From NCBI GenBank assembly GCA_050273025.1, contig CP158635.1:4836001-4900000 (forward strand): DNA of 64,000 nucleotides, read 5' to 3'. Positions within the stretch are counted from its first letter, which is position 1. Every line of letters starts with the position of its first letter. The DNA is from Cenococcum geophilum (lineage: Eukaryota). Positions 10,178 to 64,000 of the stretch are shown here, piece by piece. The notes below the pieces were generated by a model. The model saw only the letters and a list, made by a program, of their open reading frames with translations, ran no database searches and was not told the DNA's origin. Both the position numbers and the translations under genes were made by a program.

Positions 10178-13100
10178 TGTAACGGAACCTTATAGCAAGA
10201 ACTATAATAGGCTTATTAATGGGCTAGGTATATAGGTAAAGTAAGTTAAAGTTAACAGTATAATAATAACTGGTGGAGTAGTTGCCTAATAGATTAACGC
10301 TAATTGTATTCTAAGAATTACTATAAAGAAGGAACTATCTAGGTAGGGACTAAGGGTCCTTAAATACACAACCGTACTTCTATAAAATCCTTCTTATAGG
10401 TAATATACGTATACTCTATTTACTTTATTACAAATTATACGGATTATATAGATTATATAGATTACCCTATATAACCTTAGTTACTATTCCTCGTTATATA
10501 GTTCTACTAGTTCTATTCTAGACTATGCCTAAATTAACTAACTAGCTTCTTTCGACTCTTCTCTAAGTAGTTATAATATTATACTTAAAGCGTCCGTAAC
10601 ACTATCTCCCTCCTCTTTATCTTTGTTCTTAAAGATTCTAAATATCTCTAAGTTGTTTACTAGAGGTGTAATATCCGTCTAATTAATTTGGTTAATATTA
10701 TTGCTTATTATACCTAAAGCAATTTCTTTGTCTTTAACTGCTCGTCGTATTCGCACTATTGCTATAATATTATCTCTTAGTGAAATTATACTATCTCCGT
10801 GTTTTTGCTATTTAAAAAAGGGGTTAGTTTATATTATGTTAGCAAACCTATCTTCGTAATAACTGTTCTCTTACTTAGAATGCACTAAAGCGAATATTTG
10901 TTTATCCTATAACGTTCGCTCCGTCTTTAATACTAAATATACGTAACCTATTACTTTTAATAGTTGTCTAGTTCCCTAATTAATTTGTCTTAGGGTCTTA
11001 TATTTAATCTACTACTGCGCAGCTAGATAATAAACTATCTATTACTCTTGCTAAGTTACGCCATTCTTAGGACGCTGAATAAGAGGCTGCCGATACTTAG
11101 TAACGGGCCCTTAAGTCTCATCTTACGGCATTCGCTTAGTTAATTCGTCTTAAGAAGGTTTATAAAAAGGTGCGTTTTAAGGAGTAGAAACTTATAAAAT
11201 AGGGTTTATAGGAACTTAGTAATAAAAGAACGGACTTTCTTCTAACTAAGAAGGAAATAGATCTAAGTAGTTCGGTAACTGCTCTTCTTAGGTCCCCCTT
11301 AGGTAACTTATTCTTTAGTAATTCTTTTTTATTAATGCTTCCTAACCTAATCTCTTTTAATACTCCTATACCTTTCCTATAGCGTTCTTTAAATTTTTTA
11401 GTAGTTTCTAAGTAGTCTTAGTGTAGCCTATCCACTTTATTTCGTACTATATTTTATTATTAATATCCTTATAGCTAACGATCTTTAAAACTTACTATTT
11501 GTCTTCTTCTTATCCTCTATATATGTCTGCTTTATAAACTAGTGGCTTAATATTCCTGTATACTGGCTCTAGTATTACAATATACTATATATGGTAGATC
11601 TTTATTTTGGCTAGTAGGTCTAACTTAAATATAACTAATAAAATCCTTTGCTTAATTTTAAAAGGTCCTAGCCTAATATAGTCCAATTTCTTACTTAGTT
11701 ATTAACTCTTAAAATTTTTATATAGTAGCTATACTTTATCTCCCTCCTTAAGATCTAGTCCCTTGGATCTTTTAGCATTATAGTACTTTTTTATTCTCTT
11801 TTATACTTTCTTTACTAATTCTATAAGGTTTATATAAAGATTTATTAACGTCTTTATTCTTTCTTTAGCTATACTACTTATTTTCTTTACTTACTATAGT
11901 AATAACGATATTCTTAGCTTATATCTATAATTTGCTTTAAATAGTAATATGCCTATTCCTTCTTATAGCGTTATATTATATATAAATTGTATAATTGGTA
12001 ATAGCAATACCTAATTGTTCTATATATAATTAATATAGTATCTTAGATACTATTCTAATGTCTAATTTAGTCTTTCCGTTTAACTATCTATCTGTAGATA
12101 ATATACGGTAGAAGTTACTGCTTTAACTCCTTATTCCGCTAAGAATACCTTTTAAAATGCTGCTATAAATCTTAGATCTCTATCCGATATAATCTTACTT
12201 AGTGCTCTATGTCTTATAAACACTTCCTTAATATAGATTTTAGCGATATCTTCTACTAATATTTCTTCTGTGCATGCTATAAAGTATCCCTACTTTATAA
12301 GCTTGTTTACTATTACTAGGATCGCGTTATAATCCTATCTAGTAATAGGGTCTCTTAACTTTAGCAACTTAATAATAAAGTCCTATAATATAACCTCCTA
12401 TAGTCTCTCTAGTATTTTAATAGGTTATAGCCCTCCGTATGGCTTATACCTTATTAATTTATTTCTTTAGTAATCTAGATATTCCTTTATAACTTTTTAT
12501 ATTAAGCCTTAGATTCTATTAATAATATACTCCTCTTAGAGTCTTAATACTAAGCCCGTGGCTCTGTTATGTCCTTAAGTTATTCCCTTATAGAAATCTT
12601 TTACGAAATGCTCTGTTATGCTTTTTAGGATATACTTAGCTTCTCAATTTTTGTATATATCTATTTATAAATCTTCTAGTTATGCTTTTAGAATTTTTTA
12701 TACCTAAAAGCTCTCTAGTACCTCGTAAACTCTTTCTAGTTCCCCATTTTCCTAAGTTGCTGTAATTTTTAAATAATTATACCTAATTAATCTGTCTATG
12801 TCTTTCCGCAGTAAAGCCCCTAATGGCTTTTTATTATTCTATAGTTTAGCCTTCTAATTTAGAGCATCTGCTTATATATTATCTATACCCTTAATATACT
12901 AAATCTTAAAATAGTATTTTGTAAGTATCTCTGCCTATCTAACCTATCTCTAGTTAAGTTCCTTTATTATTAGAAATCCTATTAGGTTCTTATAATCCGT
13001 CTTAACTATAAATAGTTTCTCTATGCCTTATAAGAATGCTCTCTATTTCTTTAGTGCTGCGACTATACTTAACAACTCCTTATTATAGATGTTATAGTTT

Positions 13101-16100
13101 AACTCTAGTAGTGTTATTTTCCGACTATAATATGCTACTAGGTGCCATCTATCCTAATGTTTTTATATAAAGTATGCCCCTAGTATATAGTCTAATATAT
13201 CTATTTCTATAACCGTTTTTAGTCCTAGTTAATAGATCTTAAAAACTAGCTCCTAGGTAAATAACTCTTTAACTTTTTTAAAGAGTTCTCGCTGTTCCTC
13301 TCCCTATACCTATAGTTCTTCTTTCTTTATTAACCGCGTAAATGGCTTAATATCTTTTAACTATTGCGCTATAAACCTCCTATAGTAATTACAAAACCCT
13401 AAAAACAATCTTAGCTGTATAACGTTCTCTAATTCTTACTAATTTACTATAGCCTTAATCTTTTTTAGATCTATACTAAGTTGGCTTAGTTTAATAATAA
13501 ATCTAACAAAATTGGTCTTCCTAGTAAAAAACTCGCATTTTTTAATTATTACTAGCATCTATTCTTCCTATAGTCTCCTTAAGACCCATTTAACGTATTC
13601 TCCATACTCTTCCTTAGTTATTAAGTAGATAATAATATTGTTAAAGTATACTATAACAAATTTATTTAAGTGTTCTCCTAATATGTTGTTAATACGCTTC
13701 TAGAACATTGCTAATACGTTTATAAGCCTAAATTATATAACTAATAGTTTATATAGTCCTTCCTTTAACCTAAAGGCTACCTTTTATTTGTTGCCTTTCT
13801 TAATCCTAATTTAATAATATGCCTATCTTAAATCTATCTTTATAAAGATTTATATATTGCCTATTCTGTCTTAGATTTTGCTAATTAAGGGTAAAGGATA
13901 CCTATCCTTTCTAGTAATACTATTTAACTATCTATAGTTAATATGTAGTCTTAGTTTAATATTCTTCTTTGGTATAAATAGTACTAGATAACCCGCTAAT
14001 AACTGCGATAGTCTAATATATCCCTTTTATAAGTTTTCTTAAATAAACTCTTTTAGCGCTCTACCTTCTTCTTTAGTAAGCTTATAGATTGGAAAGAACC
14101 TTAGACTTATTCCTAGTTCTAATTCTATTTTATAGTCCTATACTATATACTCTAACAGCTTCTCGCTTTTTAGTAACTATAGTTTCTTGCTATACTTATA
14201 GTATTTCTTTAGTACGTAACTTAGTCCTTTTTCTATTTCTTTATAGATCGCCCCTACTTAGTACTATACCATCTTAGCTTATTATTACATTTTGCGTTAT
14301 TAAGTATCCCTAATATTAACCTAACCTATAACCTAATCGATCTTTAGATTATATTCCTATAACTAAGGTATCTCTAATACTGCCTTATTATTTCCTAATA
14401 GTAATATATTAAAAGACATCTTAATTTATCTCCCTTTAATAGTTAACTATATAGGTCTGGTTTTAAGATTAATAATACCTCCTCCATAGGCTATCGGATC
14501 TCCTAAAATTGTCACTAATAGGTAAGGATACTCCTTTTTCCTATGTGGTAATCCTATTCTTTTAACTGCTGCTAGTAAGATATAGTTCCTTATTACTCCA
14601 CTATCTATTAATACTTTAAACTACTAATCTTACCATTTAGCTCGTAAATTTAGGTGTTATCCTTAAATTCCTTTAAGGGTTTAAGGCTCTACTACTAGTT
14701 CCCTCTAGTCCTATAGGCCTCTACTTTTCCCAACTATTAGCTGCTTAATTCTATTTATACTTAGTCTACCTTTAGCTAATACTTAGTTCGCTTTTTATCT
14801 TTAATATATTATAGACATATATTTTTTAGGCATTCCTACTACTATTATCCATCTAGGTATTCTTCCGTAAGGAATCTTCCTAGCTAAAGTATTAAGTTAC
14901 CTAACTCCTAAACTTCTACTAGATGCCAGCTATACATATACTTAGCGTTTTAATACCTTTATTCTTTTACTAACTAATATATTCTTATAGGGTATTTCCA
15001 ATATTTATCTTTTGGTGCTCTGTATATATTATATATATTATTTACGCATATAATCTATACTAATATATAATATACTTAGTGCTTTAAGTTAACTCTTAGT
15101 TTATCTTTATCCTTAAGTTTAAACCTTTATTATATTAATCTAAACGTTGCAACTTTATTTACAGGTACTAAGATACGCCTCTTGCTTTTCTAGTCCTCTA
15201 AATACTCCTCTAGATCTTTTAATATTATAATTAAGGCTCCCTTAATATGACTTATCGCTTTTTCTATAATCGGGTGGTCTTAGATAACATTCTTGTTTAA
15301 CCACATATAGAAATCTTCCTACTTATTATTATGCCTTTACCTATACCACTTTTAGTATAGCTGCTAGAGTATATACGGTTTATTTATAAGGAAGTATCTT
15401 CTTATTACTACGTCGTAACAGCCCTTTATATATCGTTTCTTAAACCTAGTTAAAATCCCTAAATCCTCTTCTTATTCTAGTTTAGTAAGCCACTTAGCTC
15501 TTAGTATGCCTGCTTTAGGCCTATTAGTAATTCTTTATACTAGTGCTCTATCCCTTATACGTCCTAATATGCTAGATCTCTTATCTAGTTTCTATTCTTA
15601 CCATAAGGTAATCCTTACTCTAAACTCCTCTATAGTTTCTTTCTTTTCGCGTCTTATAAGCGGATCCTTAAAGTCTTCTTACTTCTTAATCTTAGTATTA
15701 GTCTTCCAATCTTTAGGCTAAATGCTGTGTTCCCCTAGTAGGTCCTCTAGGTCTATCTATCTATCTCCTAGTCTAATTGCTATTTATACCGCAGATTCTC
15801 TAATCTAGTTAATGGTTCTTATTTATGTCTTAAAGTCTTAGTTCTATAGGATTCTTAATCCCAAGCTTACTTCTAACTTAAGCTTTACCCTAGCCTTAGT
15901 CCAACTAGGCTTACTTAGTATTCTTATCTCGTCTTAAGAGTCTTAAATCTTACTTATCTTATCTTAAGAGTCTTATACCTATAGGAAACTCTATCCTAAG
16001 CTTATTTATATATCTTTAAACTAAGCTACTACCCTACTCTATTAGTTTCTATCCGTTATGGGTCCTTAGGTTTACCTTATCTTGTCTTAAGAATCTTAGT

Positions 16101-18127
16101 CGTCTTTTATCTCATCTTAAGAGTCTTAAGCCTTTGGCTTCTTGCCTTTATTAAGTACTAAAGTGGCTCGCTATCCTACTTCTCTTATATCTCGTGAAGT
16201 AATAGACATTGTATCTAGCGGGGTCTTAATCCCTACTAATATTCCCTATTCTATAGTGGAATTATCCTCTACCTCTATTATAACATCTTTAAGGTCTATA
16301 TACTCCTAATAAGCTGCTTTCATTGCCTTATTATTATAGAATGTTTCGCCTACGTTAAATTTATCGTCCTTAATATCCGATCTATAAACTAGTTTATTAG
16401 TCCCTTTATATTCTAAGGATTATAGCTCCTATAGCCAATAGCTTGCGCTATACTTAGCGTCTTTATAAATTTAGTATGCGTTATTATAATAAAACGTAAA
16501 ACTTCTAATTAAACACTCTTTTGTTCCTTATAGTATACTATCGCCCCTCTATACGTATATATCTTTTACTAGTTAGGTTCCCTTTATTATATAGTAACTC
16601 TAACTATCTTTATAATCCCTTGCGAAATAACCCTATTTTCCGCAATTTATATAAGCTCTATTTTTAAACTATTAACTTTGCTATAGAGTCCGCCTAAACG
16701 TCTTCTACTACTAAGATCCCTAGTTTAGCCTCTACTCCTTAGTCCTATAATTACTAGATCCTTAACCTTTAGGTTTTTACGGTTTCTTACTCCATCTCTT
16801 ATAGGCTTCTTTAGTACCACTTAGGTCTATTAGCTCTACGCTATACTATAGTTTCTAACTTAGCTTTAGTTAATGCGTACTCTACGCCTTATACAACTAT
16901 AGAACTCTATTCTAACCTTTTTTAGCCTATTCCCTTTAGTAAATCTAATTGTTAATCTTAATTACCTAATCTATTAAATCCCTTAGGGTATCCGTATCTT
17001 CCATTAGGATAATTACGTCCTAGACTTTAGCCTTAAGTCCCTACTTATACTATGCTATAAGCGCCTTATTATTCCACTTAACTTATATTGCTAGCGTTTA
17101 GAACTATATTATATACTTAATTACTAAGGTTTACTGCGTAATATCCTAGAGTTTTCTTTCCGCTATAGTTACTGCCTCTAGGTCTCTAAACATTTACATA
17201 AGTTACTCTATAAACCCTTCCTAGCTTAAAAACATAAACTACACCTCTTAATTAGTGGTTGTTATTCCATTTACCTATATTTCTATAAGGTAAAGCTTAA
17301 ACTACTTAAGTGCCCTTCTTAACAGGAATAGTCCTATATAGGCTATTCGATCTATAGGTGTTAGTAGCTTTACCCCTTCTTACGTAACCTTAAAGTGCAT
17401 TTATATAAGGAATCCTTTAAGCTTTAATCTTTCTCTTAAGTACCTTTTAATTAATAGTAACTTAATCCTTACCGCACCTATCCTATTAACCCTTTTTTCC
17501 ATTACTACATTATTAGCCATTAACTAGTCGATTATCTCTTATAGCTGTCCGACCGTTACAGGTTATTAAGAATTAGTGTCCGCTATACTGGTATCTCCTC
17601 CTGACCTTAAAGTAGTTGCTGCCGTCGATAGCGTTATAGTAGCTGCTTTTGGTGGCATATTATTTGACTTTTTATACTTATTACCGTAACTAGGTAGTGA
17701 TTATATAACGGAACTTTATAGCAAGAACTACAGTAGGCTTATTAATGGGCTAGGTGTATAGGTAAAGTAAGTTAAAGTTAACAGTGTAATAATAATTGGT
17801 GGAGTGGTTACCTAATAGATTAACTCTAATTGTATTCTAAGAATTACTACAAAGAAGGAACTATCTAGGTAGGGACTAAGGGTCCTTAAATACACAACCG
17901 TACTCCTATAAAATCCTTCTTATACGTAATATACGTGTGCTCTATCTGCTCTGTTACGGATTACACGGATCGTATAGATTATATAGATTACCCTACGTGA
18001 CCTCAGTTACCATTCCTCGTTATATAGTTCTACCGGTTCTATCCTAGACTGTACCTGAATTAACTAACTAGCTTCTTCCGACTCTTCTCTAAGTAGTCGT
18101 AACATTGTACTTAAAGCGTCCGTAATA
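10178..18127 (-). mobile_element. Full-length Gypsy LTR retrotransposon family 'B', copy B1, RIP-degraded; LTRs 10178-10601 and 17704-18127
   Basis: Two 424-bp direct repeats; 5-bp TSD aaata; purine tract on the minus strand next to 10601; minus-strand gag (MPPKAA start near 17659), RT, RNase H, integrase and chromodomain relics; colinear with B2 and B3. Confidence 0.95.
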
Positions 18128-31266: not shown

Positions 31267-34200
31267 ATGGAAGCGGACTGGGATGAGGTATGTGTATCAA
31301 CACTTTAACACGCGCCGAGATTAACGCGCATTCCGTTCGCTATTCTCTTAAATCCCTATTTCTATAATTTCTACCATAGTTCGTCATATCAAATACTAAC
31401 ACCTTTGCACGAGCAGGTCGCTATCATCCAACTGCCTCCACCTGGGCCTCATAATGCTCCAACGCCGGTAACCACATTCGCTTTCGATACATCGCAAGAG
31501 CTGCTATGGATAGGCAACGATTTTGTGAGTACGTTCAACGGCTTCGCGGCCTAATTGAATCGAGGATACTAACTTACTGTGTCCAGGGCCGAGTCATGTC
31601 CTTCTACGGTCCGAATCTTGAGAAATACACCTCTTACAGGGCCCACCCTACAGCCGAAGGAGCTGTCCAGCAGCTATTGTTCACTGAAAAAGGCATATTG
31701 TCGATTTCAAAATGGAGTATACACTTTGCCATTCGTCGTGGCTTAACACAATGGCATCTCACGTATGTTTGGGATCCCAGAGGTGGATATTGGATCAATA
31801 CTAGGGACTCTGGGGCGTGCTGATATATACGTTGCAGAAATGAGGCTTTTAAGGACCTACGATGTGTCAACTTCACATCAAAAGGGACGCGCGAGGTTCT
31901 CGTGGCAGGATGTCAGGACCAGATGTTTAAGGTTGATGTAGAGAAAGGATCTATCACAGAGACTGTGAGAGACTATGTTGGTAATTAACCTGAAAGAAGC
32001 ATCCTAATAGAGGAATAGCTCCCGGCAACAGATAATTATACGATTATGAAAAGAGCGGGACAGTATATTTGCGCAGCAACCAGCACCGGATCAGTGCATA
32101 TGCTTGATTCAGGCACTCTCGCCGTTATCAAATCTTGGAAAGCACACGCGGGATCCATCAATGACATGGATGCGAAATCGGACTTTCTTGTCACTTGCGG
32201 CTGGTCGCCTCGCCAACAGTTTGGTTTTATGCTGGACCCCTTTACAAATGTATTTGACTTGAAGACACTGGCGCCTCTCCCACCGATTCCATTCCATACA
32301 GGAGCCGCATTTGTTCGAATGCATCCACGAATGTCTACTACCAGCATTATTGCATCTCAGAGTGGGCAAATGCAAGTTATTGATCTGATGAATCCAGATA
32401 CGGCCAACCTCCGACAAGTTAATCTTTATGATGCATTCTTGACTGGCCTTGAATTGGCGCCTTCCGGTGAGGCTCTTGCGCTTTCAAACACCAGTTGTAA
32501 CATCCACTTATGGGGCTCTCCATCTAAAATTCACTTCCCCGAGTACAGCAACTCCACAGAATTTGCAGAGCATCCTGTGCCTCCGCCATCAATGGATTGG
32601 TCTTTGGACACGTAAGCTGCACTGAGTTCTTCTGAAGATATAAACCTTACGAGTCTGATTAGGCCCTTGAGCACCGTTGGTATGCCCTTTTACAAGGAAG
32701 CATTACTTTCAGGTTGGCCGAGCCACATGATTTTCGAGGTCGGCGCACCGCCGCCGAAGGTTGACCCAACCGTTCTGGGTAGCATGGCTAGGACCGATAT
32801 TGGTTTCTATGCCAAAAATCCCAAAACTAAACGCAGAAATCAGGTTGAGGATACTCGGTTAGCTGATAGGATAAACGACTCCCTTACAGCCCCAAAATTC
32901 CTGAGTGAAAAGGCACGAGCAGCCCAATCGACTAACGAGTCTGGATCTGGATCGAAGACAATCGAAACTATGGAGACTCTGACCGATTTGCATCTAGATG
33001 ATGTGACAAGAAAGGACGTCCCTGCTATGTATGGAAACGTGGAAATTAAATACAGTAAATTCGGCGTTGACGACTTCGACTTTGCGTAAGTTTACCCCTA
33101 AGATACAATAAGAAAATCTTCTTATTCAGCGACAGCTACTATAATCAGACCCAATTTTCAGGACTGGAAACGCACATTACTAATTCATATGCCAATCCGC
33201 TACTTCAACTTTGTCGATTTACCCCCTGGATTCGAAATCTAGCCTTACACCACACTGCTTCTTCCTGCCTTTACGAGGCCTGTCTACTCTGCGAGTTAGG
33301 CTTCCTGGTTGATATGCTTGAGAAAGCAGGCGGCTTAAACTGCCAGGCCTCAAACTTTTTAAAAACATTTAGCAGTCTCTCCAATGGTATTTGACAGTAA
33401 TCTCCCGGACCAACGTAATTTCACTGACCATTCTCTTAGTCGCTTCGCTTGGCCTACTAGAAGAACTGTCACCAAATGTGGCCCTAACGAGTATGATTCA
33501 GGCCTTCAATCGCTTCCTCCTAGATAAGATTGCAGAGGAATTCAAGCGGATGCTACCCTCTCAAGGCTTACCATCAATCATGGACCAGGTCAATATTACT
33601 ACTCTGTAGTTCATACCAGCATAAAAGGAATGGTTAAACTAATTGTATACAGGTTCTTGAAACGCAAGCATTAGCAAGCATGCGATGCGCACAATGTAAC
33701 AATGAGACTGTGAAAGGCGGAAAGACCTTCGTGAACGAACTGGTCTACCCTTTAAAAGTATTAATTACGTATCGCTCTTGATTCGATTCAATAATTAATG
33801 AATGTAGAACACTGTCAAAAACCCGATGCGAGCTCCTCGGCCTACTTTCTCACAAATCCTCAAGGCAAGCGTAGAAAGGCAAGACCAGACCAGAGGGTGG
33901 TGCACCAAATGTAACCGGTACCAACAAATGGTGCAAAGAAAGACTATCCAGTCAATCCCTGTCGTTCTGATGTTAAACGCTGCCATCCAGAGCCACGAAG
34001 CTAAGCAGTTATGGTCAACGCTGAATTGGCTTCCTCAAGAAATCGGAATTATAGTCGAGCAAGGACAGTTCTTCTGCTACGAAGGCCAGGACTTGAAGCT
34101 TCATCTCCAGAGAGGCGTCTATAACATTATGGTATACGAGCTTATCGGCGTTGTGGCTGATATAAACAGCGGTGAACACCAGAAACCTCACCTTGTGACT

Positions 34201-35350
34201 ATGATTAACAGTGAGAATCGCCGTTCCGTGTATAAATTTATAAGCTAATTTAGTTTAGCGAGTCCATCATCAAGAGATCCGACATCCGAGAATAAATGGC
34301 ACCTCTTCAACGATTTCCTTGTTAGACCAATTCCAAAGGAAGAAGCTCTGCGCTTCGAACCGACATGGAAATTACCTGCCGTTCTGACCTACCAAGCTAA
34401 GTCGGCAAGCCATCAAATCGACGATACATGGAAAGACCATCTTGACACCCAGCTGCTTTACCGGTGGTGGTCTTCTAAGTATGACTTATAATTTTCGTTC
34501 CACCTTCCGCTAATGTTGGTCTAGCCTAGAACCACCTGAGTCGCAATTTAAACTCCTCAACCCTAGCACCGAAGCCCCACGCCCCGGTACTCCAGTTGCA
34601 ATTGACGCCGAGTTCATTCGACTCCAAGCCGAGGAGATCGAGATGAAGGCTGATGGTACCCGCGAAACCATACGGCCTGATCGCAAAGGTCTGGCGCGCG
34701 TCTCCGTCTGTCGCGGCGCCGGCGAACTCGCCGGCTTACCCTTTATTGACGATTACATCTCCGTTACCGAACCTGTCGTCGACTACCTGACGGCCTGGAG
34801 TGGCATATCGCCCGGCGATCTCGACCGCACAACGAGCCCGCACGCGCTCGTCGGTTTAAAACATGCGTACAAGAAACTGTGGCTGCTGCTGAACCTAGGT
34901 TGCGTCTTCGTCGGCCACTCCCTCGCCAACGACTTTCGCACCATCAACATTCACGTGCCGAAGAAGCAAGTCGTCGACACTGTCGATCTCTTCTTCAAGC
35001 GCGAACTTCACCGCAAGCTCAACCTCAAGTTCCTTGCCTGGTGCGTGCTGAAAGAGAAGATCCAGGAGGACACGCATGACAGCATCGAGGACGCCACGAC
35101 CGCGCTGAAACTCTGGAGGAAGTATCAAGAGTTTGTTGACGCGGGAGTCCTTGAGCAGATGCTCGATAACATCTATGCGACTGGCAGGGAGGTCGGGTTC
35201 CGGGCGCCGGGCAGCAAGGACGTCAGGCTTGGAGGTGGTAGAGATACGCCTGAGCCTGGGAGGGCGGATACGCCGGGAGTCGGGGCAGTCACGCCGGCCA
35301 AAAAGACAGGATTTGGCAGGGGCGTGGGATTTGGTAGTCCGATGAAGTAG
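31267..35350 (+). CDS. PAN2: PAN2-PAN3 poly(A) deadenylase catalytic subunit PAN2 (multi-intron)
   Basis: Start MEADWDE; WD40 region; linker [13 protein letters not shown]; pseudo-UCH domain ([23 protein letters not shown]); C-terminal DEDD exonuclease ([25 protein letters not shown]). Numerous short GT-AG introns; not all exon borders were enumerated. Confidence 0.96.
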
Positions 35351-36159: not shown

Positions 36160-37405
36160 ATGGATCCGCTAAGCGCGCTAGGTCTGGCCTCGAACATCGT
36201 CCAGCTTGTCCAATTCATCGGTGTAGTAATATCGGACAGTCATGAAGTATACTCCTCCGCGGATGGGGCGCTCCAAAGAAATTATGCGCTGGAAGAGGTG
36301 GCCTGCACGATTGGTCAGAGAAGGAGCTGGCAAAGGTTTTTAAGAAATTGATATTAGACAATTCTTTGCGGCTGGCCTTCTTTATTGACGGGCTGGATGA
36401 ATTCAATGGAAACCACGAGGAGCTCGTACAGCTTATTATCTCGCAAAGACTCTGAACGTCAAATTCTGCTGCGCTAGCCGTCCGTGGCTTGTATTTGAAG
36501 ACGCATTTGAGGGTCGACCGAGCGTCCTACTCGAAAGGTTGACTCAGGGAGATATCACACGCTACGTCTTGGATAAGTTCGAGCAGAACAAGCGTTACGC
36601 TAAGCTAAAAATCCGACGACCAGATCTCTCTAAACTTGTGGATGAAGTTGTAGAAAAGGCCAACGGCGTGTTCCTTTGGGTGTACCTCGTTGTAAAGTCT
36701 TTGTTAGAAGGGCTCAGAGATTCAGATAGGGTTTGTGATCTACAGAAACGCCTGGACAGCCTGCCATCCGACCTCCAAGAATTGTTTGATAGATTGTTGG
36801 AACGTCTCGACACTTTTTACTTCAGGCACGCCTGCCAACTGATTAGGATTGTTCGAGCTGCGAGCATTCCACTTACGGTTCTCGTCATGTCATTCGCAGA
36901 CGAAGATAATCGTAAAGCCGCTATCAGAGCCAAAGTGAAAGCATTGACGAAAACCGGCGTAGCGGATAGAGAGGATGAAATAAGGCGCAGATTGAACAGC
37001 CGCTCCAAGGGTCTCATTGAAGTGTCGGAGAGTAAGAAAGTCCAGATCCTCCACAGGACTGTCAAAGATTTCATCGACACACTGCGCAACTGGACAAAGA
37101 TTGTCAAAGCAGCTAGAGAGTTCTTTGATCCAGTTTTTATGCCGTGCAGCGCCTATTTATTCAAAATAAAGACGGTGAACCCCGACCACCCAGACCGCCG
37201 GCAAGACGCCTTCAAGGCCCTTATCGAATACGCTATTGAAATCCAAGGGGCCAAAGGTACAGCGCCCATCGCTATCCCGGACGAGGCCGATCGAGAGACG
37301 AAACATATAACGACAAAACACTATAATGCCGTCTCCCGCGCTCTGAAGTACCGCTTTGAGAAGTTGGGCAAGTCCAGTGTGGTTTTGGATGATGCGAATA
37401 AGTGA
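36160..37405 (+). pseudogene. Internally deleted and frameshifted NACHT/STAND (fungal NLR-like) gene relic
   Basis: N-terminus MDPLSALGLASNIVQLVQF is typical of fungal STAND N-terminal domains. About 200 nt later come Walker B (LAFFIDGLDEF), a frameshift, KFCCASRPWLVFEDAF and KANGVFLWVYLVV. No Walker A is visible. Confidence 0.75.
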
Positions 37406-46592: not shown

Positions 46593-49500
46593 TATTACGG
46601 ACGCTTTAAGTACAATGTTATAACTACTAGGAGAGGAGTTGGAAGAAGCTAGTTAGTTAATCTAGGCACGGTCTAGAATGGAGCTGGTAGAACTATGTGA
46701 CAAGGAATAGTAACTAAGGTCATATAATATGCTACGTATTAAACGAGAGGAACGAGAGGAACTTACGTACCTTATATATAACACGTACATCACGTATAAG
46801 AAGGATTTCCTAAGAGTACGGTTGTGTATTTAAGGACCCTTAGTCCCTACCTAGATAGTTCCTTCCTTATAGTAATTCTCAGAATATAATTAGAGTTAAT
46901 CTGTTAGGCAACCACTCCACCAGTTATTATTACATTATTAACTTTTATACTTATATTTCCTATACACCTAGCCCAATAACAAGCCCATTGTAGTTCTTAC
47001 TATAAGGTTTTATTACACAATTACTACCCGGTTACGGTATTAATATAAAAAGTTAAATAACATGCTACTAAAAGCAGCCACTATAACGCCATTAACGGCG
47101 GCAACTACTTTAAGGTTAGGTAACGACACCAGTATAGCAGACACTAACTTATAGCAACCTATAACGGTTGGATAGCTATAAGAGATAGTTAACTAGTTAA
47201 TAGAAAATAATACAATGTTAGAAAATAGGATTAACGGGATAGGCGCAGCAAAGGTTAAGTTACTATTAATTAAAAGGTACTCAGGAAAGAGATTAAAGCT
47301 TAAAGGATTTCTTACGCAAATGCACTTTAAGGTAGCGTAGGAAGGAGCAAAGCTGGCAACATCTATAGATTAAATAGCCTATATAGGACTATTCTTAACA
47401 GAAAGGGCACTTAAGTGGTTTAAGCCTTACCTTATAGAGATACAAGCGAATAGCATAACAACTACTAACTAAGAGGTACGGTTTATATTCTTAAGCTAGA
47501 ATAGATTTATAGAATAACTTATATAAATATTTAGAGACCTAAAGGCAATAACTATAGTAGAAAGGAAACTCCAAGATATTACGTAATAAACCTTAGCAAT
47601 TAAGTATATAACGTAGTTCCAGACATTAGTAATATAAGTAGAGTAGAATAATAGGGCGCTTATGGCACAGTATAAATAGGGACTTAAGGCTAAAGTCTAG
47701 GACGTAATTATTCTAATAGAAGATGCGGATACCCTAAGGGAATTAATAGATTAAGCAATTAGGATTAATAATCGGATCTACTAAAGGGAATAGGCTAAGA
47801 AAGGTTAGGATAAAGTTCTATAGTTATATAAGGCGTAAAGTACGTAACAACTAAAGCCAAGTTAAAACCTATAGTATAGCGTAGAGCTAATAGACCTAAG
47901 TGGTACTAAAAAAGCCCGTAAGAAAGGGAGTAGAAAACTATAGTAACCTAAAGGATAAGGATTAAGTAATTAAAGGCTTAAGGAGCAGAGGCCGAATTAG
48001 GGATCTTAGCAGTAGAAGACATTTAGGCGGACTCTATAGCAAGAAAAATGGTTTAAAGAAGGAGCTTATATAAATTACGGAAAACAGGGTTATTATATTA
48101 GAGACTATAGAAGTGGGTAGAGTTACTATATAGTAAAAGGTATAAGACTAGTAGATAACATATATATATAGAGGGATAATAATATACTATAAGGAATAAA
48201 AGAATATTTAATTAGAAGTTTTGCGTTTTGTTATAATAATATATACTAAATTTATAAGGACGCTAAGTATAGCGTAAGCTATTAGCTATAAAAGCCAGCA
48301 CCTATAAGATATAGAGGAACTAACAAACCAGTTCATAGATCGGATATTAAGGACAATAAATTTAATATAGGCAAAACATTTTATAACAATAAGGCAACGG
48401 AAGCAGCTTACTAGGAGCACGTAGACCTTAAAGATATTATACTAGAGGTAGAGGATAATTCCACTATAGAATAGGGAACATTAGTAGGGATTAAGACCCT
48501 ATTAGACACAATGTCTATCGCTTCGCAAGATACAAAAGAAGTAGGGCAGCAAACTACTTCGGCACTTAATAAAGGTAAAAGGCCATAAGCTTAAGATTCT
48601 TAAGACAAGATATAAGATAACTAAGATTCTTAAGATAAGATAAGGCAAGCTTAAGGACCTATAACGGACAATAACCAATGGAGCAGAGTAATGGCTTAGT
48701 TTAGTAATATACGAATAAGCTTAGGACAAAGTTTCCTAAAGGCACAAGACTCTTAAGATAAGATAAATAAGATTTAAGACTCTTAAGACGAGATAAGAAT
48801 ACTAAGTAAGCCTAGTTAAACTAAGGCTAGAGTAAGGCTTAAGATAGAAGTAAGCTTAGGATTAAGAATCTAAAAGGGTTAAGAATTTAGGGAATAAATT
48901 AAGACACCCATAAATAAGAGGTAAGAGGCTTCTTTATAGATTAGAGAATCTATAGTATAAACAGCAATTAGACTAAGAGACAAGTATATAAACCTAGAGG
49001 ATTTACTAGTAGAATATAGTGTTTGGACTAAAGATCGAAAAGTTAATACCAAGATTAAGAAGTATAAAGACTTTAAGGATTTAAGCGTAAGACGCAAACC
49101 GAAAGAAACTATGAAAGAATTTAGACAAAGAATTATTGTATAGTAAGAATAAAAACTAGATAAGAGATTTAGTATATTAGGACGTATAAAGAATAGAGCA
49201 CCTATATAAAGAATTACTAATAGGCTAAGAGTAGGCACACTAAGAGCTAAGTGGCTTACTAAACTAGAAAATAAAGAGGATTTAGAAATTCTAACTAGGT
49301 TCGAAGAATGATATATAAAGGGCTATTACAATATAATAATAAGAAGATACTTCCTTACGGATAAGCCGTATATACTCTAGCAGCTATATTAAAAGTGGTA
49401 TAGATAAAGGCATAATAACGAGTGGGAAGATTTCTATATATAGTTAGATAAGAAAGTTATCTAAAACTACCCGATTATAAAGAAGGCCATAATATATATT

Positions 49501-52500
49501 AAAGGAGCCTTAATTATAATATTAAAAAATCTAGAGGAACATTTAGAGGACTAGAGAAGTAAGAGACGTATCTTAGTACCTATAAATAAAGTTATAACGT
49601 TTAGATTAGCATAATAAAGGTTTAAACTTAAAGATAAAGATAAGTTAAGAGTTAACCTAAAGCACCTAGCACACTATATACTATTATGGATTGCATATAT
49701 AGACAACATATACGAGATATATAAGAATCCAAAAGAAAAGAATTGGAAATACCTTATAAGAATATACTAGATAATAGACGAGTAATAGTATAGAAATACT
49801 AAATATATACATAGATGGTATCTAGCAGAAGTCTAAAAGGAAGGAAGTTTAGTATTTTAACTAGGAAGATTCCTTATAGAAGAATGCTTAAATGGATAAT
49901 AGTAGTGGGAATGCCTAGAGAATATATATTTATAGTATATTAAAGATAAAAAACGAACTAGGTATTAGCTAAAGAATAAGCTAAGTATAATAAGATTAAG
50001 TAGCTAATAGTTAGGAAAAGTAGAGGCCTATAAAACTAAAGGGAGCTAGTAGTAGAGCTTTAGACCCTTAAAGGAATTTAAGAACACCTAAATTTATAAG
50101 TTAAATAGTAAGATTAGCAGTTTAAAGCGCTAATAGATAGTGGAGTAATAAGGAACTATATTTTACTAGCAGCAGTTAAAAGAATAGGACTACCTTATAG
50201 ATAGAAGGAGGAATCTTACCTATTAGTAATAATTTTAGGAGATCCGATAGCCTATAGAGGAGGTATTATTAATCTTAAAACAGGACCTATTTAGATAACT
50301 ATTAAAGGAAGACGAATTAAGATGTCTTTTAATATCCTACTATTAGGACGGGATAAGGCAGTATTAAGTATACCTTAGTTATAGGAATATAATCTAAGGA
50401 TTAATTAGATAATAGGTTAGGTTAATATTAGAAATACTTAACGCCGTAAGATGTGATAATAAGCTAAGTTAGTATAGTACTAAGTAGGAGCAACCTATAA
50501 AGAAATAGAGAAAGGCTTAAGTTACGTACTAAAGAGATACTATAAGTATAGTAAGAAACTATAGTTATTAGAAAGTGAAAAGCTATTAAAGTATATAGCT
50601 TAGGACTATAAGATAGAGTTAGAACTAGGAATAAGTCTAAAGTTCTTTCCAATCTACAAGCTTACCAAAGAAGAAGGTAAAGCACTAAAAGAGTTTATCT
50701 AGGAAAATCTACAAAAGGGATACATTAGACTATTATAGTTATTAGCGGGATATCCAGTACTATTTATACTAAAGAAAAATGGCAAACTAAGGCTATATAT
50801 CGACTATAGATAGTTAAACAGCATTACCAGAAAGGATAGGTATCCTTTACCCTTAATTAGCGAAATCTAAAATAGAATAGGTAACGCATAAATCTTTATA
50901 AAGATAAATCTAAGATAGGCGTACCATTAAATTAGAATTAAGGAAGGCAATAAATAGAAGGCAGCCTTTAGGTTAAAGGAAGGACTATATAAACCATTAG
51001 TTATGCAATTTAGGCTTATAAACGCACTAGTAATATTCTAAAAGCGTATTAATAACGTATTAGGGGAATACTTGGATAAATTTATTATAGTATACCTTAA
51101 TGATATTATTATCTACTTAATAACTAAGGAAGAATACGGGGAATACATTAAATAGGTCTTAAAGAGACTATAAAAGGAATAGATACTAATAATAATTAAG
51201 AAATGCGAGTTCTTTACCAGGAAGACCGATTTTATTAAATTTATTATTAAACTAGGCCAACTCAGTATAGATCTAAAGAAAATTAAGGCTATAGTGAATT
51301 AGTAAGAACTAGAGAACGTTATATAGTTAAAATCGTTCCTAAAGTTTTATAATTACTATAGAAGGTTTATAGCATAATAGTTAAAGGATATTAAGCCATT
51401 TACATAATTAATAAAGAAAGAAGAACTATAGGCATAGGGAAAGGAACAAAAAAAACTCTTTAGGAAAGTTAAAGAGTTATTTACCTAAGAGCCAGTTCTT
51501 AAGATCTATTAACTAAGACTAGAAACGGTTATAGAAATAGATGCATTAGACTATATACTAGGGGCGTACTTTATATAGAAATATTAAGATAAATAGCACC
51601 TAGTAGCATACTATAGTCGGAAGATAATACTACCAGAGTTAAACTATAACATCTATAATAAGGAGTTATTAGGTATAGTTATAGTATTAAAGGAATAGAG
51701 AGTATTCTTATAAGGCATAAAGAAACCATTTATAGTTAAGATAGATTATAAGAACCTAATAGAATTCCTAATAATAAAGGAACTTAACTAAAGATAGGTT
51801 AGATAGGTAGAGATACTTATAGAATACCATTTTAAGATTTAGTATACTAAGGGTACAAATAATATATAAGCAGATGCTCTAAGTTATAAGGCTAAACTAC
51901 AGAACAATAAAAAGCCATTAGGGGCTTTACTGCGAAAAGATATAGACGGATTAATTAGGTATAATTATCCTAAAATTATAGTAACTTAAGAGGAACTAGA
52001 TAAGGTTTATAAGACACTAAAAAGCTTTTAGGTATAAAGAATTTTAAAGGCATAACTAGAAGATCTATAAATGGATATATATAAGAACCGAGAAGTAAAG
52101 TATATCCTAAGAAGTATAGCAGAGTAGTTTATAGAGGACTTCTATAAGGGATTAACTTAAGGATATAATAGAGCTATAGGCTTAGTATTAAGACTCTAGG
52201 AGGAGTATATTATTAACAGAATTTAAAATATTATAAGAAGAGTAATAAAGGAATATCTAGATTACTAAAGGAATAAACTAACGAGGCATAAGCCATATAG
52301 AGGGCTATAACCTATTAAAATACCAGAGAGACTATAGGAGGTCATATTATAGGACTTTATTATTAAGTTGCTAAAATTAAGAGATCCTATTACTAGACAA
52401 GATTATAATGCGATCTTAATAATAGTAAATAAGCTTATAAAGTAGGGATACTTTATAGTATGTATAGAAGAAATTTCAGCGGAAGATATTACTAGAATCT

Positions 52501-54536
52501 ATATTAAGGAAGTATTTATAAAACATAGAGCACTAAGTAAGATTATATTAAATAGAGATCTAAGATTTATAACAGTATTCTAGAAGGTATTCTTAGCAAA
52601 GTAAGGAGTTCGAGCAATAACTTTTACCGTATATTATCCGCAGATAAACGGTTAAATGGAAAAATTAAATTAGACACTAGAATAGTATCTAAAGCATTAT
52701 ATTAATTATATATAGAATAATTAGGTATTACTACTACCAGTTATATAGTTTATATATAATGCAACACCTTAAGAAGGAATAGGCATATTACTATTTAAGG
52801 CAAATTATGGATATAAGCTAAGAATATCGTTATTACTATAATAAGTAAAGAAAATAAGTAGTACAGCTAAAGAAAGGATAAAGACATTAATGAATCTTTA
52901 TATAGACCTTATAGAATTAGTAAAGAAAGTATAAAAAAGAATAAAAAAGTACTATAACGCTAAGAGATCTAAGGGACTAGATCTTAAGGAAGGAGATAAA
53001 GTATAGCTACTATATAAAAATTTTAAGAGTTAACGACTAAGTAAGAAGTTAAACTATATCAGACTAGGACCTTTTAAAATTATATAAAAAATTTCACTAG
53101 TTATATTTAAGTTGGACCTACTAGCCAAAATAAAGATCTACCTTATATAGTATATTATAATACTAAAGCCAGTATACGGGAATGTTAAGCTACTAGTTTA
53201 TAAAGAAGACACGTATAGAGGATAGGAAGAAGATAAATAGCAAGTTTTAAGGATTATTAGCTATAAGGATATTAATAATAAAATATAGTATAAGGTTAAG
53301 TAGATAGGCTACACTAAGACTACCTAGGAGCTACTAAAAAATTTAAAGAATGCTATAAGAAAGGTATAGGAGTATTGAAAGAGATTAGGTTAGGCAGTAT
53401 TAAAAAAAAGGATTACTAAAGAATAAGTTACCTAAGGGGGACCTAGGAAGAGTAGTTGCCAAACTACTTAGATCTATTTCCTTCTCTGTTAAAAGAGAAT
53501 CCGTTTTTTTATTACTAAGTTTCTATAAACCTTATTCTATAAGTTTCTACTTCTTAAAACGCACCTTTTTATAGACCTTCTTAAGACAAAGCAAATAAGT
53601 AGATGCCGTAATGCGAGTATTTAGGGCCTTCTATTTCATATTTTAAGAACATTTTAACTTAATAAGGGCTTAAGATAGTTTACCATCTAGCTATATAGCA
53701 GTAGATTAAATATAAAACCCTAAAACAAATTAATTAAGGAACTAGACAACTATTAAGAGTAATAGGTCGCGTATATTTAGTATTAGAAGTAAAGTAAACG
53801 TTATAGGACAAATAAATATTCGCTTTAGTGCACTTTAAGTAAGAGGACGGTTATCGCGAAGATAAGTTCGCTAACGCAATATAAACTAACCCCTTTTTTA
53901 AACAATAAGAATATAGAGACGGTATAATCTTATTAAGAGATAATATTACAGTAACAGTGTAAGCACGACATTGGGCGTATAAGGAAGAAATTACTTTAGG
54001 TATAATAAGTAATAATATTAACTAAATTAATTAGACGGATATTATACCTTTAGTAAATAACTTAGAGATATTTTAAATCTTTAAGGATAAAGATAAAGAG
54101 GAGGGAGATAGTATTACGGACGCTTTAAGTACAATATTATAACTACTAGGAGAGGAGTTAGAAGAAGCTAGTTAGTTAATTTAAGCACGGTCTAAAATAG
54201 AGCCGGTAGAACTATGTAATAAGGAATAATAACTAAGGTTATATAATATGCTACGTATTAAATAAGAGAAATAAGAGGAACTTACGTACCTTATATATAA
54301 CACGTATATTACGTATAAGAAGGATTTCCTAGGAGTACGGTTGTGTATTTAAGGACCCTTAGTCCCTACCTAGATAGTTCCTTCCTTATAGTAATTCTCA
54401 GAATACAATTAAAGTTAATCTATTAGGCAACCACTCCACTAGTTATTATTACGTTGTTGACTTTTATACTTGTATTTCCTATACACCTAGCCCAATAACG
54501 AGCCTATTGTAGTTCTTACTATAAGGTTCCGTTACA
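46593..54536 (+). mobile_element. Full-length Gypsy family B copy B2 nested in the integrase of D; LTRs 46593-47017 and 54112-54536
   Basis: 425-bp direct repeats; TSD cctaa; gag ATG near 47062; zinc-knuckle relic near 48065; RT relic YLND near 51092; PPT gaggagggagatag; reverse-complement similarity to B1. Confidence 0.95.
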
Positions 54537-58862: not shown

Positions 58863-61800
58863 TGTAACGGAACCTTATAGCAAGAACTACGATGGGTTCG
58901 TCAATAGGCTAGGTGTATAGGAAATGCAAGTACAAAAGTCAATAACGTAATAACAACTGGTGGAGTGGTTGCCTAACAGATTAACTCTAATTATATTCTA
59001 AGAATTACTACAAGGAAGGAACTATCTAGGTAGGGACTAAGGGTCCTTAAATACACAACTATACTTCTAAGAAAGTTGTTACTCTATCTACTCTATCTAC
59101 TCTACTTACTCTATAATAGATCTTATAGATTACACAGATTATATAGATCACATTATATGACTCTACTTACTATTCCTTATTATATGGTTTTACGGGTTCT
59201 ATTCTAAACTATACCTATATTAACCAACTAGCTTCTTTTAACTCTTCTCTAAGTAGTTATAATATTATACTTAAAGCATCCGTAATACTATCTCCCTCCT
59301 CTTTATCTTCGTCCTTAAAGATACCTAGTATCTTTAGGTTATTTACTAGAGGTATAATATCCGTCTAATTAATTTAGTTAATATTATTACTCATAATACC
59401 TAAAGCATCCTCTCTTTCTTCTATAGCTCGCCGGTCTTATACCGTTACTATAATATTATCTCTTAGTAAAATAATACCATCTCCGTGTTCTTATTATGCG
59501 AAAGAGGGGTTAGTCTATATTACGTTAATAAGTCCTTTATCTTAATAACCTTCCTCTTACTTAGAGTGCACTAAAGTAAACGTTTAATTATCTTGCGATA
59601 TACGCTCTATTTCTAACACTAAGTGTGCGCGTCCTATAACTCTTAGTAGTCTTTAAGTTCCCTAGGTAATTTATTATAGGGTCTTGTGTTTAATTTAAGG
59701 TAGAAAAACTTAAGGGCGATCTTGCCGCAGCGCTAGCGGAAGCCTATCGTCGTTCTAAAGAATCTACTTATGCCCTTAAGGCTTAGCAGTCTGCCTTTAT
59801 AAAAGTTTAATATCTTTAACATGTTCGTAAGAAGGTCCATTCTAAGAAATAAAAACTTATAGAATAAGGTCTATAGAAACTAGGTAATAAAAAAACGGAT
59901 TCTCCTCTAACAGAGAAGGAAATAGATCTAAGTAGTTCGGCAACTACTCTTCTTAGGTCCCCCTTAGGTAACTTATTCTTTAGCGATCTTTCTTTATTAA
60001 TGCTGCCTGACCTAATCTCCTTTGATACTCCTATACCTTTCCTATAGCGTTCTTTAAATTCTCTAGTAGCTCCTAGGTAGTCTTAGTGTAGCCTATCTAC
60101 TTTACTTTATACTATATTTTATTATTAATATCCTTATAACTAACAACCTTTAAAACTTACTATTTGTCTTCTTCCTACCCTCTATACGTGTCTGCTTTAT
60201 AAACTAGTGGCTTAATATTCCTATATACTAGCTCTAGCATTGCGATATACTATATAGGGTAGATCTTTATTTTAGCTAGTAGGTTTAACTTAAATATAAC
60301 CGGTGAAATCCTCTATATAATTTTAAAAGGTCCTAGTCTAATATAGTCCAATTTCTTACTTAGTCGTTAACTCTTAAAATTTTTGTATAGTAGCTATACT
60401 TTATCTCCCTCCTTAAGATCTAGTCCCTTAGATCTCTTAGTATTATAGTACTTTTTTATTCTCTCTTATACTTTCTTTACTAATTCTATAAGGTCTATAT
60501 AAAGATTTATTAATGTCTTTATTCTCTCTTTAGCTATACTACTCGTTTTCTTTACTTACTATAGTAATAATAATATTCTCGGCTTATATCTATAATTTGC
60601 CTTAAATAGTAATATGCCTATTCCTTCTTAAGGTATTACATTATATACAAACTATATAACTAGTAATAGCGATACTTAATTGTTTTATACATAATTAATA
60701 TAATGCCTTAGATACTGTTCTAGCGTCTAATTTAACCTTTCTATTTAACCGTCTGTCTACGGATAATATGCGGTAGAAGTTGCTACTTAAACTCCTTGCT
60801 CCGCTAAGAATACTTCCTAAAATACTGCTATAAATCTTAGATCTCTATCCGATATAATCTTACTTAGTACTCTATATCTTATAAATACTTCTTTAATATA
60901 GATTCTAGCAATATCTTCCGCTAAGATTTCTTCTATACATGCTATAAAGTATCCCTACTTTATAAGCTTATCTACTATTACTAAGATCGCGTTATAATCT
61001 TATCCGGTAATAGGATCTTTTAATTTTAGCAACTTAATAATAAAGTCCCATAATATAACCTCCTATAGTCTCTCTAGTATTTTAACAGATTATAGCCCTC
61101 TATATAGCTTATGCCTTATTAATTTATTCCTTTAGTAATCTAGATACTCCTTTATAACCTTTCTAGCTATCCTCTAGATTCTATCAATAATGTACTCCTC
61201 CTAAAGTCTTAACACTAAGTTTATAGCTCTATTATGTCCTTAAGTTAGTCCCTTATAGAAGTCCTCTATAAACTACTCTACTATACTTCTTAGAATATAC
61301 TTTACTTCCTAATTTTTATATATATCCGTCTATAGATCTTCTAGCTATACTTCTAGAATTCTTTATACCTAAAAGCTTTCTAGTATCTTATAGACTTTCT
61401 CTAGTTTATTATCTTCTTAAGTTGCTATAATTTTTAGATAATTATACCTAATTAATTTGTCTATATCTTTTCGTAATAAAGCCCCTAATAGCTTTTCCTT
61501 ATTTTATAGTTTAGCTTTACGGCTTAGAGTATCTGCCCACGTATTATCTATACCTTTAGTATACTAAATCTTAAAATAGTATTCCGTAAGCATCTCTACC
61601 CATCTAACCTATCTTTAGTTAAGTTCCTTTATTATTAGAAATCCTATTAAGTTCTTATAATCTATCTTAACTATAAATAGTTTCTCTATACCTTATAAAA
61701 ATACTCTCTATTTCTTTAATACTGTAACTATACCTAATAACTCCTTATTATAGATGTTATAGTTTAACTCTAGTAGTATTATCTTCCAACTATAATATGC

Positions 61801-63134: not shown

Positions 63135-64000
63135 TGTTGGACTTATAAGGGGATATTACGTAGCTACGGTTCGTAGATAGTATGATGATTATTGTTCTTA
63201 TATTCTTGAAGAAAGGGGTAAGGAACTTAAGGTTCCTCACCACGCTAGTGCCGCGGCGGCACGTGATGGCAACTTGCTATACGTGACGGCAATATGCCTT
63301 ATATGGTGACCATTTGCCTTTATTCCCAACACTAGCAACTCTTCTTTTATGGTTGCCATCTATATATATATACCGCTTAACTAGCGGAACAAAAATTAAT
63401 CCTCTTTACTTACTATTGCCATTATAATATAAGTCTCGCTGTCCTAAAATTTGCCTCTTAACACGTGGTGCTTTCTTGCTTATAAGTTATAGGTAGGTAT
63501 CTTATCAGTAGGGCCGCCAAGGCGCTAGCGGTAAGCGAGCCAATAGCGATTTTCTATCCTAGGGATGGAAAATCCTAATTAGCTAGTTTGAGTTAGGGTC
63601 TGCAGAATCTAACTAATTAGATAACTTCGACCGCCGGTCGAAGTTCCTGGACATCTTAAGACCTCACGTGACTAAGAAATTTCTAGGGACTCCCTTTTAA
63701 CCCAACCTTTAACTTATATATGTAGAGTATTTATGTTAACAAACGTCTCTAGTGCCTTATTTGGGTTCGCCTTCGTTATTACATCTACTAGGTTATCTTA
63801 GCCATTAATCCATTAAATCTTAAAGAGTTTTTAATGCTTGTAGGATTGCTGAAGTGCTATAATATCAATTATAAGGCGCTTCTCCTTCGTGGTACCGAGC
63901 TTAACTAAATACTTATAGAGGGAAAATAAATCGGTGTATACGATTGTAGGGATAACGGGAAGTTTAAGTCGATCTATAATTATCTTTAGGGTAGTTCCAA
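63135..64000 (-). mobile_element. Copia/Ty1 LTR retrotransposon 'E', 3' end (3' LTR 63135-63331, RNase H end)
   Basis: TGTTGG...CCAACA LTR; minus-strand translation IPTIVYTDLFSLYKYLVKLGTTKEKRLIIDIIALQQSY...WING*DNLVDVITK, the fungal Copia RNase H signature. Confidence 0.9.

Follow-up and report, generated by a model that had tools for sequence, protein, structure and literature searches.

Three copies of one retrotransposon family in the genome of Cenococcum geophilum raise the question of what is encoded between the end of pol and the long terminal repeat (LTR) on the 3' side. The copies are located in a stretch of 64,000 nucleotides (nt) of contig CP158635.1 (assembly GCA_050273025.1, positions 4,836,001 to 4,900,000 of the forward strand), which is called the window here and in which all coordinates are given. 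The family, termed family B, was found in the window by self-BLAST as B1, B2 and B3, and all three have ~700 nt in common between the chromodomain and the polypurine tract (PPT). In B2, a complete Ty3/Gypsy chromovirus (46593..54536, +) that is heavily altered by repeat-induced point mutation (RIP), the initial annotation had read this region as a separate third open reading frame (ORF) in an env-like position, spanning 53525 to 54240, running in a frame different from that of pol and encoding an acidic accessory protein with a diversifying region, possibly involved in a host conflict such as anti-silencing. The comparison with intact relatives indicates that the region very probably belongs to the Pol polyprotein of the element itself, of which it forms the C-terminal part, and is not a third ORF.

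Intact homologues are found among metagenome relatives in the form of seven proteins and two whole elements. The metagenome proteins P0003-P0008 were matched with 50-61% identity by a B2 query reaching from the integrase to the end, and P0039 was recovered as seventh family member with the tail alone as query. All seven are single proteins that run from protease, reverse transcriptase (RT) and integrase plus chromodomain through the tail, with no stop following the chromodomain in any of them (7/7), and they possess 281-301 residues beyond the chromodomain. Their tails carry the stretches ...DLVPQVSTPWN..., ...IEHETLRQI.QGTRRLLRVIGR..., ...TFALVHSEQEEG... and ...IMSNDVNQIDQTDITPLVDDLEMLGIFEDEDEEEGDGVTD... 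and end with ...EPVEPCDEEW. At the DNA level, 202 relatives were obtained when metagenome contigs were screened with A1, the alignment of the tails, and 80 of them were kept (L001-L080). L001 and L002 are intact (GC content 0.51, no stops), while the other 78 loci are RIPped and contain 5-32 stops. Both intact loci are circularly permuted assemblies of whole elements, and in both the pol ORF takes in the tail: the pol frame is free of stops over 297 and 278 tail codons, respectively, whereas each of the other five frames holds 6-21. Neither the seven proteins nor L001 and L002 have a stop between chromodomain and tail, and the alignment of the tail sequences contains no conserved methionine that could serve as start codon of a separate ORF. 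Among the other Pol matches with a chromodomain, 14 of 15 end at most 26 residues past it, and the remaining one continues for 78 (P0026, which would be a sixteenth with E 0.61, was not credible and was disregarded). With 281-301 residues in the family against at most 26 in 14 of the 15 others, the tail must be seen as an addition specific to this family.

The same continuity is observed in two of the three window copies. In B1 and B3, both on the minus strand, the tail is in frame with integrase and chromodomain at 10484..11341 (stop at 10483-10481) and 59170..60006 (stop at 59169-59167), respectively. Intact tails used as tblastn queries gave one in-frame high-scoring segment pair (HSP) in each of these copies, extending from TTWEP, the chromodomain motif at which the tail HSPs begin, to the end (B1: 11416-10487, E 3.5e-78; B3: 60081-59173, E 4.4e-75). 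A 700-residue query from P0003, reaching from the integrase to the end, was aligned over 699 of its 700 residues by a single HSP in B1 (12574-10487) and in B3 (61239-59173). Only in B2 is the match (53348-54226 with P0003, E 2.2e-59) divided into two HSPs of differing frames, which meet at 53348-53408. The three-copy alignment places a 1-nt deletion private to B2 at 53404..53405 (+), where one base kept by B1 and B3 is missing, and it is because of this lost base near 53404 that B2 appears frame-shifted. As the frame change falls on the site of a gap that is absent from B1 and B3, the supposedly different reading frame is a private lesion of B2 and the ancestral state is one Pol frame; the description in the initial annotation is correct for B2 and does not apply to B1, B3 and the intact relatives. 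The B2 tail of ~281 codons (53385..54229, +; frame 53402+3k after the deletion) begins at ~53385, at the end of the chromodomain that forms the integrase's C-terminus (53226..53384, +, pol frame 50202+3k), and not at 53525, and it ends at the Pol stop TAA (54230..54232, +), and not at 54240. That there is coding sequence downstream of the chromodomain, as first proposed, is borne out by the intact relatives and by the tblastn matches with E-values from 2.2e-59 to 3.5e-78.

In the window copies, the tail frame is interrupted by numerous stops, 28 of them in B2. Taken together, the tails of B1, B2 and B3 contain 87 in-frame stops, all of which are TAA or TAG and none TGA. At the positions of these stops the intact relatives have glutamine in 42, arginine in 23 and tryptophan in 10 cases, and other residues in 12. 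Judged by these correspondences, the stop pattern is that expected from the C-to-T and G-to-A transitions of RIP, in agreement with the initial annotation. The peptides that had been read from the conceptually de-RIPped B2 sequence (QVSTP.., IEH.TLRQI.QGTR.LLRVIGR, FALVHSEQE.G and ITPLV.DLE..IFEDEDEEEGD) recur almost verbatim in P0003-P0006. The three copies B1, B2 and B3 themselves are dead RIPped relics.

The frame does not end before the PPT. In B2, the PPT (54092..54111, +) is located inside the coding frame and encodes part of the conserved acidic run FEDEDEEEGD. In L001, where the tract is intact (GAAGGGGAGGGAGATGG), the 3' end reads ...GAAGGGGAGGGAGATGG|TGTTACGGACGCC..., and from this sequence it follows that the PPT lies inside the frame and provides the end of the conserved FEDE..EEGD run. 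The intact LTR of L001 starts with TGTTACGG and ends with ...CGTTACA. The 3' LTR of B2 (54112..54536, +) contributes the first 118 nt of its U3 region (54112-54229) as coding sequence for the last ~39 Pol residues, and the first ~118 nt of the 5' LTR (46593..47017, +) are identical in kind to this coding stretch of the 3' LTR; by tblastn, the tail end was also matched by these 118 nt in the 5' LTRs, in B2 at 46594-46707 with tail residues 276-313. The codon preceding the stop (54227-54229) is a RIPped tryptophan codon, as seen from the comparison with B1, B3 and the intact ...CDEEW end; it became TAA in B2 and TAG in B1 and B3. In all three window copies the stop lies 118 nt inside the 3' LTR, and in L001 ~138 nt of the LTR are read before the pol stop, which is found in U3 upstream of the TATTTAAA box. 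The polyprotein ORF therefore crosses the PPT and stops within the 3' LTR, and the earlier proposal that a frame runs through the PPT into the LTR is confirmed.

The encoded chain is acidic, as had been supposed, with a net charge of -7 to -31 and an isoelectric point of 4.7-6.0, and ~70% of its residues are disorder-promoting. An AlphaFold2 model based on the seven-sequence alignment reached a mean pLDDT (predicted local distance difference test) of 46.5 and a pTM (predicted template modelling score) of 0.16, with 225 of 314 residues below a pLDDT of 50; past the end of the chromodomain it contains only low-confidence helices at residues 122-181, 212-229 and 275-303. The tail is thus predicted to be mostly disordered. 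Conserved within it are the short blocks ETLRQ..QG.RRL, VHSEQEEG..., ATQTN..., TPL.DDLE...FEDE..EG..VTD and EP.EP, which are separated by two poorly conserved linkers. With Pfam, the chromodomain, situated on the C-terminal side of the integrase (31.8-37.2 bits, cut-off 25.1), was the only feature above the cut-off in this part of the intact relatives, and their tails showed neither transmembrane nor zinc-cluster features; a Cdc6_C match in the tail (17.1 and 15.9 bits, cut-off 25.1) was taken as noise. No family was assigned to the tail by NCBIfam, the ESM Atlas gave no usable tail match, and a profile search of the PDB with the tail matched the chromodomain end alone, where HP1-family chains were retrieved. 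An exhaustive profile search of 1.84 billion representatives returned 276 proteins at E<=1e-3, and the best 150 of these are all fragments of 42-151 amino acids (aa), among which there is no other protein context.

One alternative would accept translation of the tail as part of Pol and differ in its fate: the element's protease could cut off the tail, which would then be a free accessory protein. It is general knowledge that LTR-retroelement polyproteins are processed by their own protease, and the stretch following the chromodomain, which is basic, poorly conserved and predicted to be unstructured beyond residue ~36, could hold a cleavage site; no such site is predictable, however. A further point for this alternative is that one gene call, P0192, comprises the tail alone; this protein of 293 aa comes from a contig of 8730 nt and starts with MGQAAS..., where other members read K-L/I-GQA. 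Its starting methionine corresponds to L, I, A or H in the other seven sequences, so that the simplest explanation of P0192 would be a damaged copy in which the call was truncated, rather than a real alternative start, and the other tail-only matches listed are short fragments such as RIPped copies give rise to. Release of the tail by the protease is accordingly regarded as unlikely, and a tail that stays part of Pol is preferred.

The initial annotation had also reported a hypervariable segment with conserved frame, and this observation was reproduced. Transversions, which are not made by RIP, are concentrated in B2 at 53549-53707, with a smaller peak at 53936-53995. In the first of these intervals 12 transversions separate B1 from B2, whereas almost all other 60-nt intervals hold 0-1, and 43 separate B2 from B3. 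The second, shorter patch (53936..53995, +) differs by 7-9 transversions per 60 nt between copies and coincides with a block of low conservation in alignment A1. On both sides of the variable segment the frame is kept in B1, B2 and B3. Considering all 83 copies (the 80 loci and B1-B3), a single in-frame HSP spans the segment in 82, with lengths of the segment between 147 and 267 nt in 9 length classes, so that all length changes in the spanned copies are in frame.

The variants fall into discrete forms. B2 contains a 55-residue form (53549..53707, +) that is nearest to P0004/L002, as judged from transversion counts, a shared 21-nt indel and the similarity of the cassettes, and B1 contains a 62-residue form (~10999-11188, -) that is nearest to P0005/L001. 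The B1 cassette is 21 nt longer, i.e., by 7 codons and not by 6 as previously counted, and this difference recurs at the same site when L001 (long) is compared to L002 (short). The cassette of B3 (~59685-59853, -) is of a third type, unrelated to those of B1 and B2: it has no detectable similarity to them in either orientation, nor to the seven intact proteins, and at the purine/pyrimidine level it matches L077, L069, L061 and L056, while L022 and L016 are less close. An inversion as origin of this cassette was rejected, as reverse-complement alignments scored at the level of shuffled sequences. At the same purine/pyrimidine level, B3 and B2 are identical to 0.92-1.00 outside the cassette in all windows but one and to 0.63-0.78 inside, and in the comparison of B3 with the L077-type copies this pattern is reversed. 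From these opposite patterns it follows that B3 is a recombinant mosaic. The variable segment behaves as an exchangeable in-frame linker present in discrete cassettes without a continuum, and the cassette pattern fits relaxed constraint together with recombination.

An independent env-like third ORF, encoding an accessory protein with a diversifying region that takes part in a host conflict, could draw on the frame difference in B2, on the variability of 53549-53707, which is far above that of its flanks, and on the lack of tail homologues outside the family. The frame difference is the private deletion of B2, however, and the pol frame is continuous in the seven proteins, L001, L002, B1 and B3 without a conserved start. 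Regarding diversification, a dN/dS (ratio of nonsynonymous to synonymous divergence) of 0.55 was obtained for a 100-codon window holding most of the variable part, which is below 1 and comes from the single pair L001/L002, a comparison that cannot exclude diversification; moreover, the variants recur as cassettes in other copies, and the structure of B3 is that of a mosaic. A third ORF is thus highly improbable, and its diversifying region is better described as a set of exchanged cassettes within the Pol tail.

Selection on the tail was estimated from the same two intact loci by the Nei-Gojobori method. The tail showed a dN/dS of 0.42 with a bootstrap 95% interval of 0.29-0.62, and a value of 1 was reached in 0 of 1000 replicates; in the two shifted frames the values were 1.57 and 0.66, and dN/dS is significantly below 1 in the tail frame only. 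By these codon comparisons, the tail is a genuine conserved protein-coding sequence under purifying selection.

Several points weigh against this interpretation. The estimate is based on one pair of intact DNA sequences, and the selection on the tail is much weaker than that on pol up to the chromodomain, where dN/dS was 0.10. Synonymous divergence between L001 and L002 is 0.39 in the tail compared to 0.84 in the rest of pol. Among 81 copies, transversion polymorphisms are distributed over codon positions 1, 2 and 3 as 64/98/103, which is a weak and atypical bias, while the neighbouring integrase as control showed 25/21/44. In addition, the intact proteins were called automatically from metagenome contigs, and the 126 weaker of the 276 profile matches could hold another protein context. 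The low synonymous divergence of the tail indicates that nucleotide-level constraint (from PPT, LTR end and possibly RNA elements) or recombination adds to the conservation, and the drop suggests either such a constraint or a more recent shared 3' end acquired by recombination. Synonymous divergence is also low (0.30) in the first 100 codons of pol, which overlap gag. Weak codon bias, halved synonymous divergence and a dN/dS of 0.42 together place the tail under relaxed constraint.

These same observations could be explained by a non-coding 3' untranslated region with cis-acting elements, in which the open frame of the relatives would be incidental: synonymous divergence and codon-position bias are low, PPT and LTR end are constrained as DNA, and the raw stop density in B2 singles out no frame downstream of pol, even true pol containing 4-10 stops per 100 codons. 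A de-RIPped consensus of the three copies also let no downstream frame stand out, yet this test is without power, as true pol still contains 3-8 stops per 100 codons in it. Against a non-coding region stand the complete lack of stops over ~280-300 codons in seven proteins with a mutual identity of only 46-85%, compared to 6-21 in the other five frames, the restriction of a dN/dS below 1 to the tail frame and the in-frame length changes in all 82 spanned copies. The stop-free frame in diverged proteins and the dN/dS below 1 in that frame alone are, on this comparative evidence, in favour of coding, and an incidental open frame is hardly credible. An antisense accessory gene on the opposite strand between pol and the 3' LTR, as in the Boty-like type, has practically no probability, since all three minus frames of the L001 and L002 tails hold 7-16 stops, no run is open across the region and no conserved minus-strand frame is found in these two elements.

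In this family the Pol frame runs on past the integrase chromodomain for 281-301 residues, through the PPT and then through the first ~118 nt of U3 up to the stop. The tail consists of short conserved blocks and two variable linkers, the first of which is occupied by exchangeable in-frame cassettes. Integrase C-terminal regions decide where LTR retroelements land, and targeting determinants in this part of integrase are known in Ty5 and Ty1. By analogy with these and with the CR motif that is encoded by the LTR in plant CRM elements, the tail may stay on the integrase as a host-contact or regulatory module, a role to which its position and the short conserved motifs in a disordered acidic chain would point. 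It could add another tether to that of the chromodomain, or form an acidic arm that is autoinhibitory or binds histones. A more specific form of this proposal, in which the tail is a new family-specific targeting or host-interaction module, a disordered acidic arm with short conserved contact motifs and an LTR-encoded last helix that would act together with the chromodomain to steer integration or would shield the element from a host factor, with the cassette evolving in conflict with that factor, is put forward tentatively and is rather doubtful as a whole. As to the origin of the tail, loss of the pol stop might have let the ORF grow across what had been the 3' untranslated region; such a stop loss would be consistent with the tail's orphan status, with its disorder and with the relaxed constraint on it.

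These considerations give the region a meaning beyond the single locus. The ~290 orphan residues following the chromodomain of a fungal chromovirus are a candidate second targeting or regulatory determinant, which matters for genomes in which elements of this sort make up the AT-rich RIPped compartments. The tail would also be a case of ORF growth into a former 3' untranslated region, so that one sequence serves at once as protein, PPT and LTR end. For the annotation of RIPped genomes, B2 illustrates that a 1-base deletion in one copy can mimic an extra gene, and that other copies and intact relatives resolve it.

The elements are embedded in a window in which gene-bearing DNA (~24-37 kb, GC 0.43-0.54) alternates with AT-rich blocks (GC 0.23-0.35) typical of RIP. 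B2, the ends and flanks of which were read, has a 5-bp target-site duplication (TSD) CCTAA and an LTR pair of 92% identity. B1 (10178..18127, -) is flanked by the TSD TATTT and has its 3' LTR at 10178..10601 (-); B3 begins with its 3' LTR (58863..59287, -) at 58863, and its alignment to B2 ends at 63135 (-). The 3' LTRs of both were determined by self-BLAST and by reading their ends. The assignment to the chromoviruses is supported by the Pol order protease, RT, RNase H and integrase (Pfam on P0008 and P0039, with the same motifs in the B2 translation, in which pol frame 50202+3k gives protease, RT, RNase H, integrase and chromodomain when stops are read as X), by the chromodomain described above, and by LTR ends of the TG..CA type, TSDs and a PPT abutting the 3' LTR. 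Directly after the 5' LTR of B2, at 47018-47040, and also at L001:4018-4040, the sequence CAAT.ACTACC..GGTTACGG is found, of which GGTTACGG resembles the LTR start TGTTACGG; the usual TGG start of a tRNA primer-binding site is lacking in the sequence after the 5' LTR. Self-priming is a property of Tf1.

The gag ORF comprises 968 codons in L001 (3994-6897, +) and 983 codons in L002 (354-3302, +). The gag of the family is unusually long: in the intact elements a Pfam capsid domain at 99-278 and a zinc knuckle at 361-376 are followed by ~600 more residues without Pfam match before the frameshift into pol, and in the gag region of B2 (~47020-50200) a repeated D-S-x-D-K-I-like motif is found in this long extension. 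In P0104 (144 aa, 4 cluster members) a piece of the gag extension (...GTLRARWLEELEREEDL) is fused to the end of the Pol tail (...TPLIKDL...FEDEAEEEE.SVTD...), which suggests an internally deleted and possibly non-autonomous derivative of the family. Many of the RIPped loci (L003-L080) are located on large metagenome contigs and are identical to the window copies to 0.95-1.00 at the purine/pyrimidine level; because of this near-identity, those metagenome assemblies are taken to contain the same fungus or a very close relative.

Remnants of other elements are present as well. Adjoining B1, a stretch at 18170-19079 (-) matches the LTR-gag start of B2 with 69% identity and is a remnant of another element, and a 26%-identical integrase-like stretch at 4110-4865 (+) is a remnant of a different Gypsy family. 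Between the RIPped blocks, an island of normal GC content contains intact-looking genes at 25067-26996 (-), 32019-35350 (+) and 36401-37405 (+), as well as several other long open frames. One island gene encodes a bZIP factor of the AP-1/PAP1 type, for which the best named match is from the Dothideomycete Lepidopterella palustris (77% identity) and another database record reaches 94%; the match to L. palustris places the host among the Dothideomycetes.

Compared to known systems, three groups of elements are relevant. An env-like ORF3 is present in Athila/Tat elements and in insect errantiviruses. With these, family B shares additional coding capacity between the core functions of the integrase and the 3' LTR; in contrast to their ORF3, the tail of family B is neither a separate ORF nor equipped with a start codon of its own. 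Family B resembles the ordinary fungal chromoviruses, such as the MAGGY, Pyggy and Tcn1 clades, in the order protease, RT, RNase H, integrase, SH3 and chromodomain, in its LTRs, the 5-bp TSD and the PPT, and in its residence in RIPped AT-rich blocks. It differs from ordinary chromoviruses, represented by the 14 of 15 other Pol matches, in continuing for 281-301 residues past the chromodomain. The accessible text of two sources makes no mention of a long extension after the chromodomain for fungal chromoviruses (PMC2864245, PMC3248453), and in the literature passages covered, an ORF running into the LTR appears in plant chromoviruses only, while no long post-chromodomain extension appears in fungal elements.

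In plants, the LTR-encoded end of the integrase of the CRM group A was described as a putative targeting domain, the CR motif (PMC3059260), and in CRM as well as in some Bingo elements of Beta vulgaris the ORF extends into the 3' LTR (PMC3605345). Family B differs from these elements in several respects: its host is a fungus and not a plant, it keeps a canonical chromodomain upstream of the PPT, where CRM group A is described to have the CR motif instead (PMC3059260), and it possesses ~250 extra residues between chromodomain and PPT. The likeness considered here is one of architecture. In this respect, CRM group A and Bingo constitute the closest precedent in the passages covered, having a gag-pol ORF that crosses the PPT and terminates within the 3' LTR, as it does in family B.

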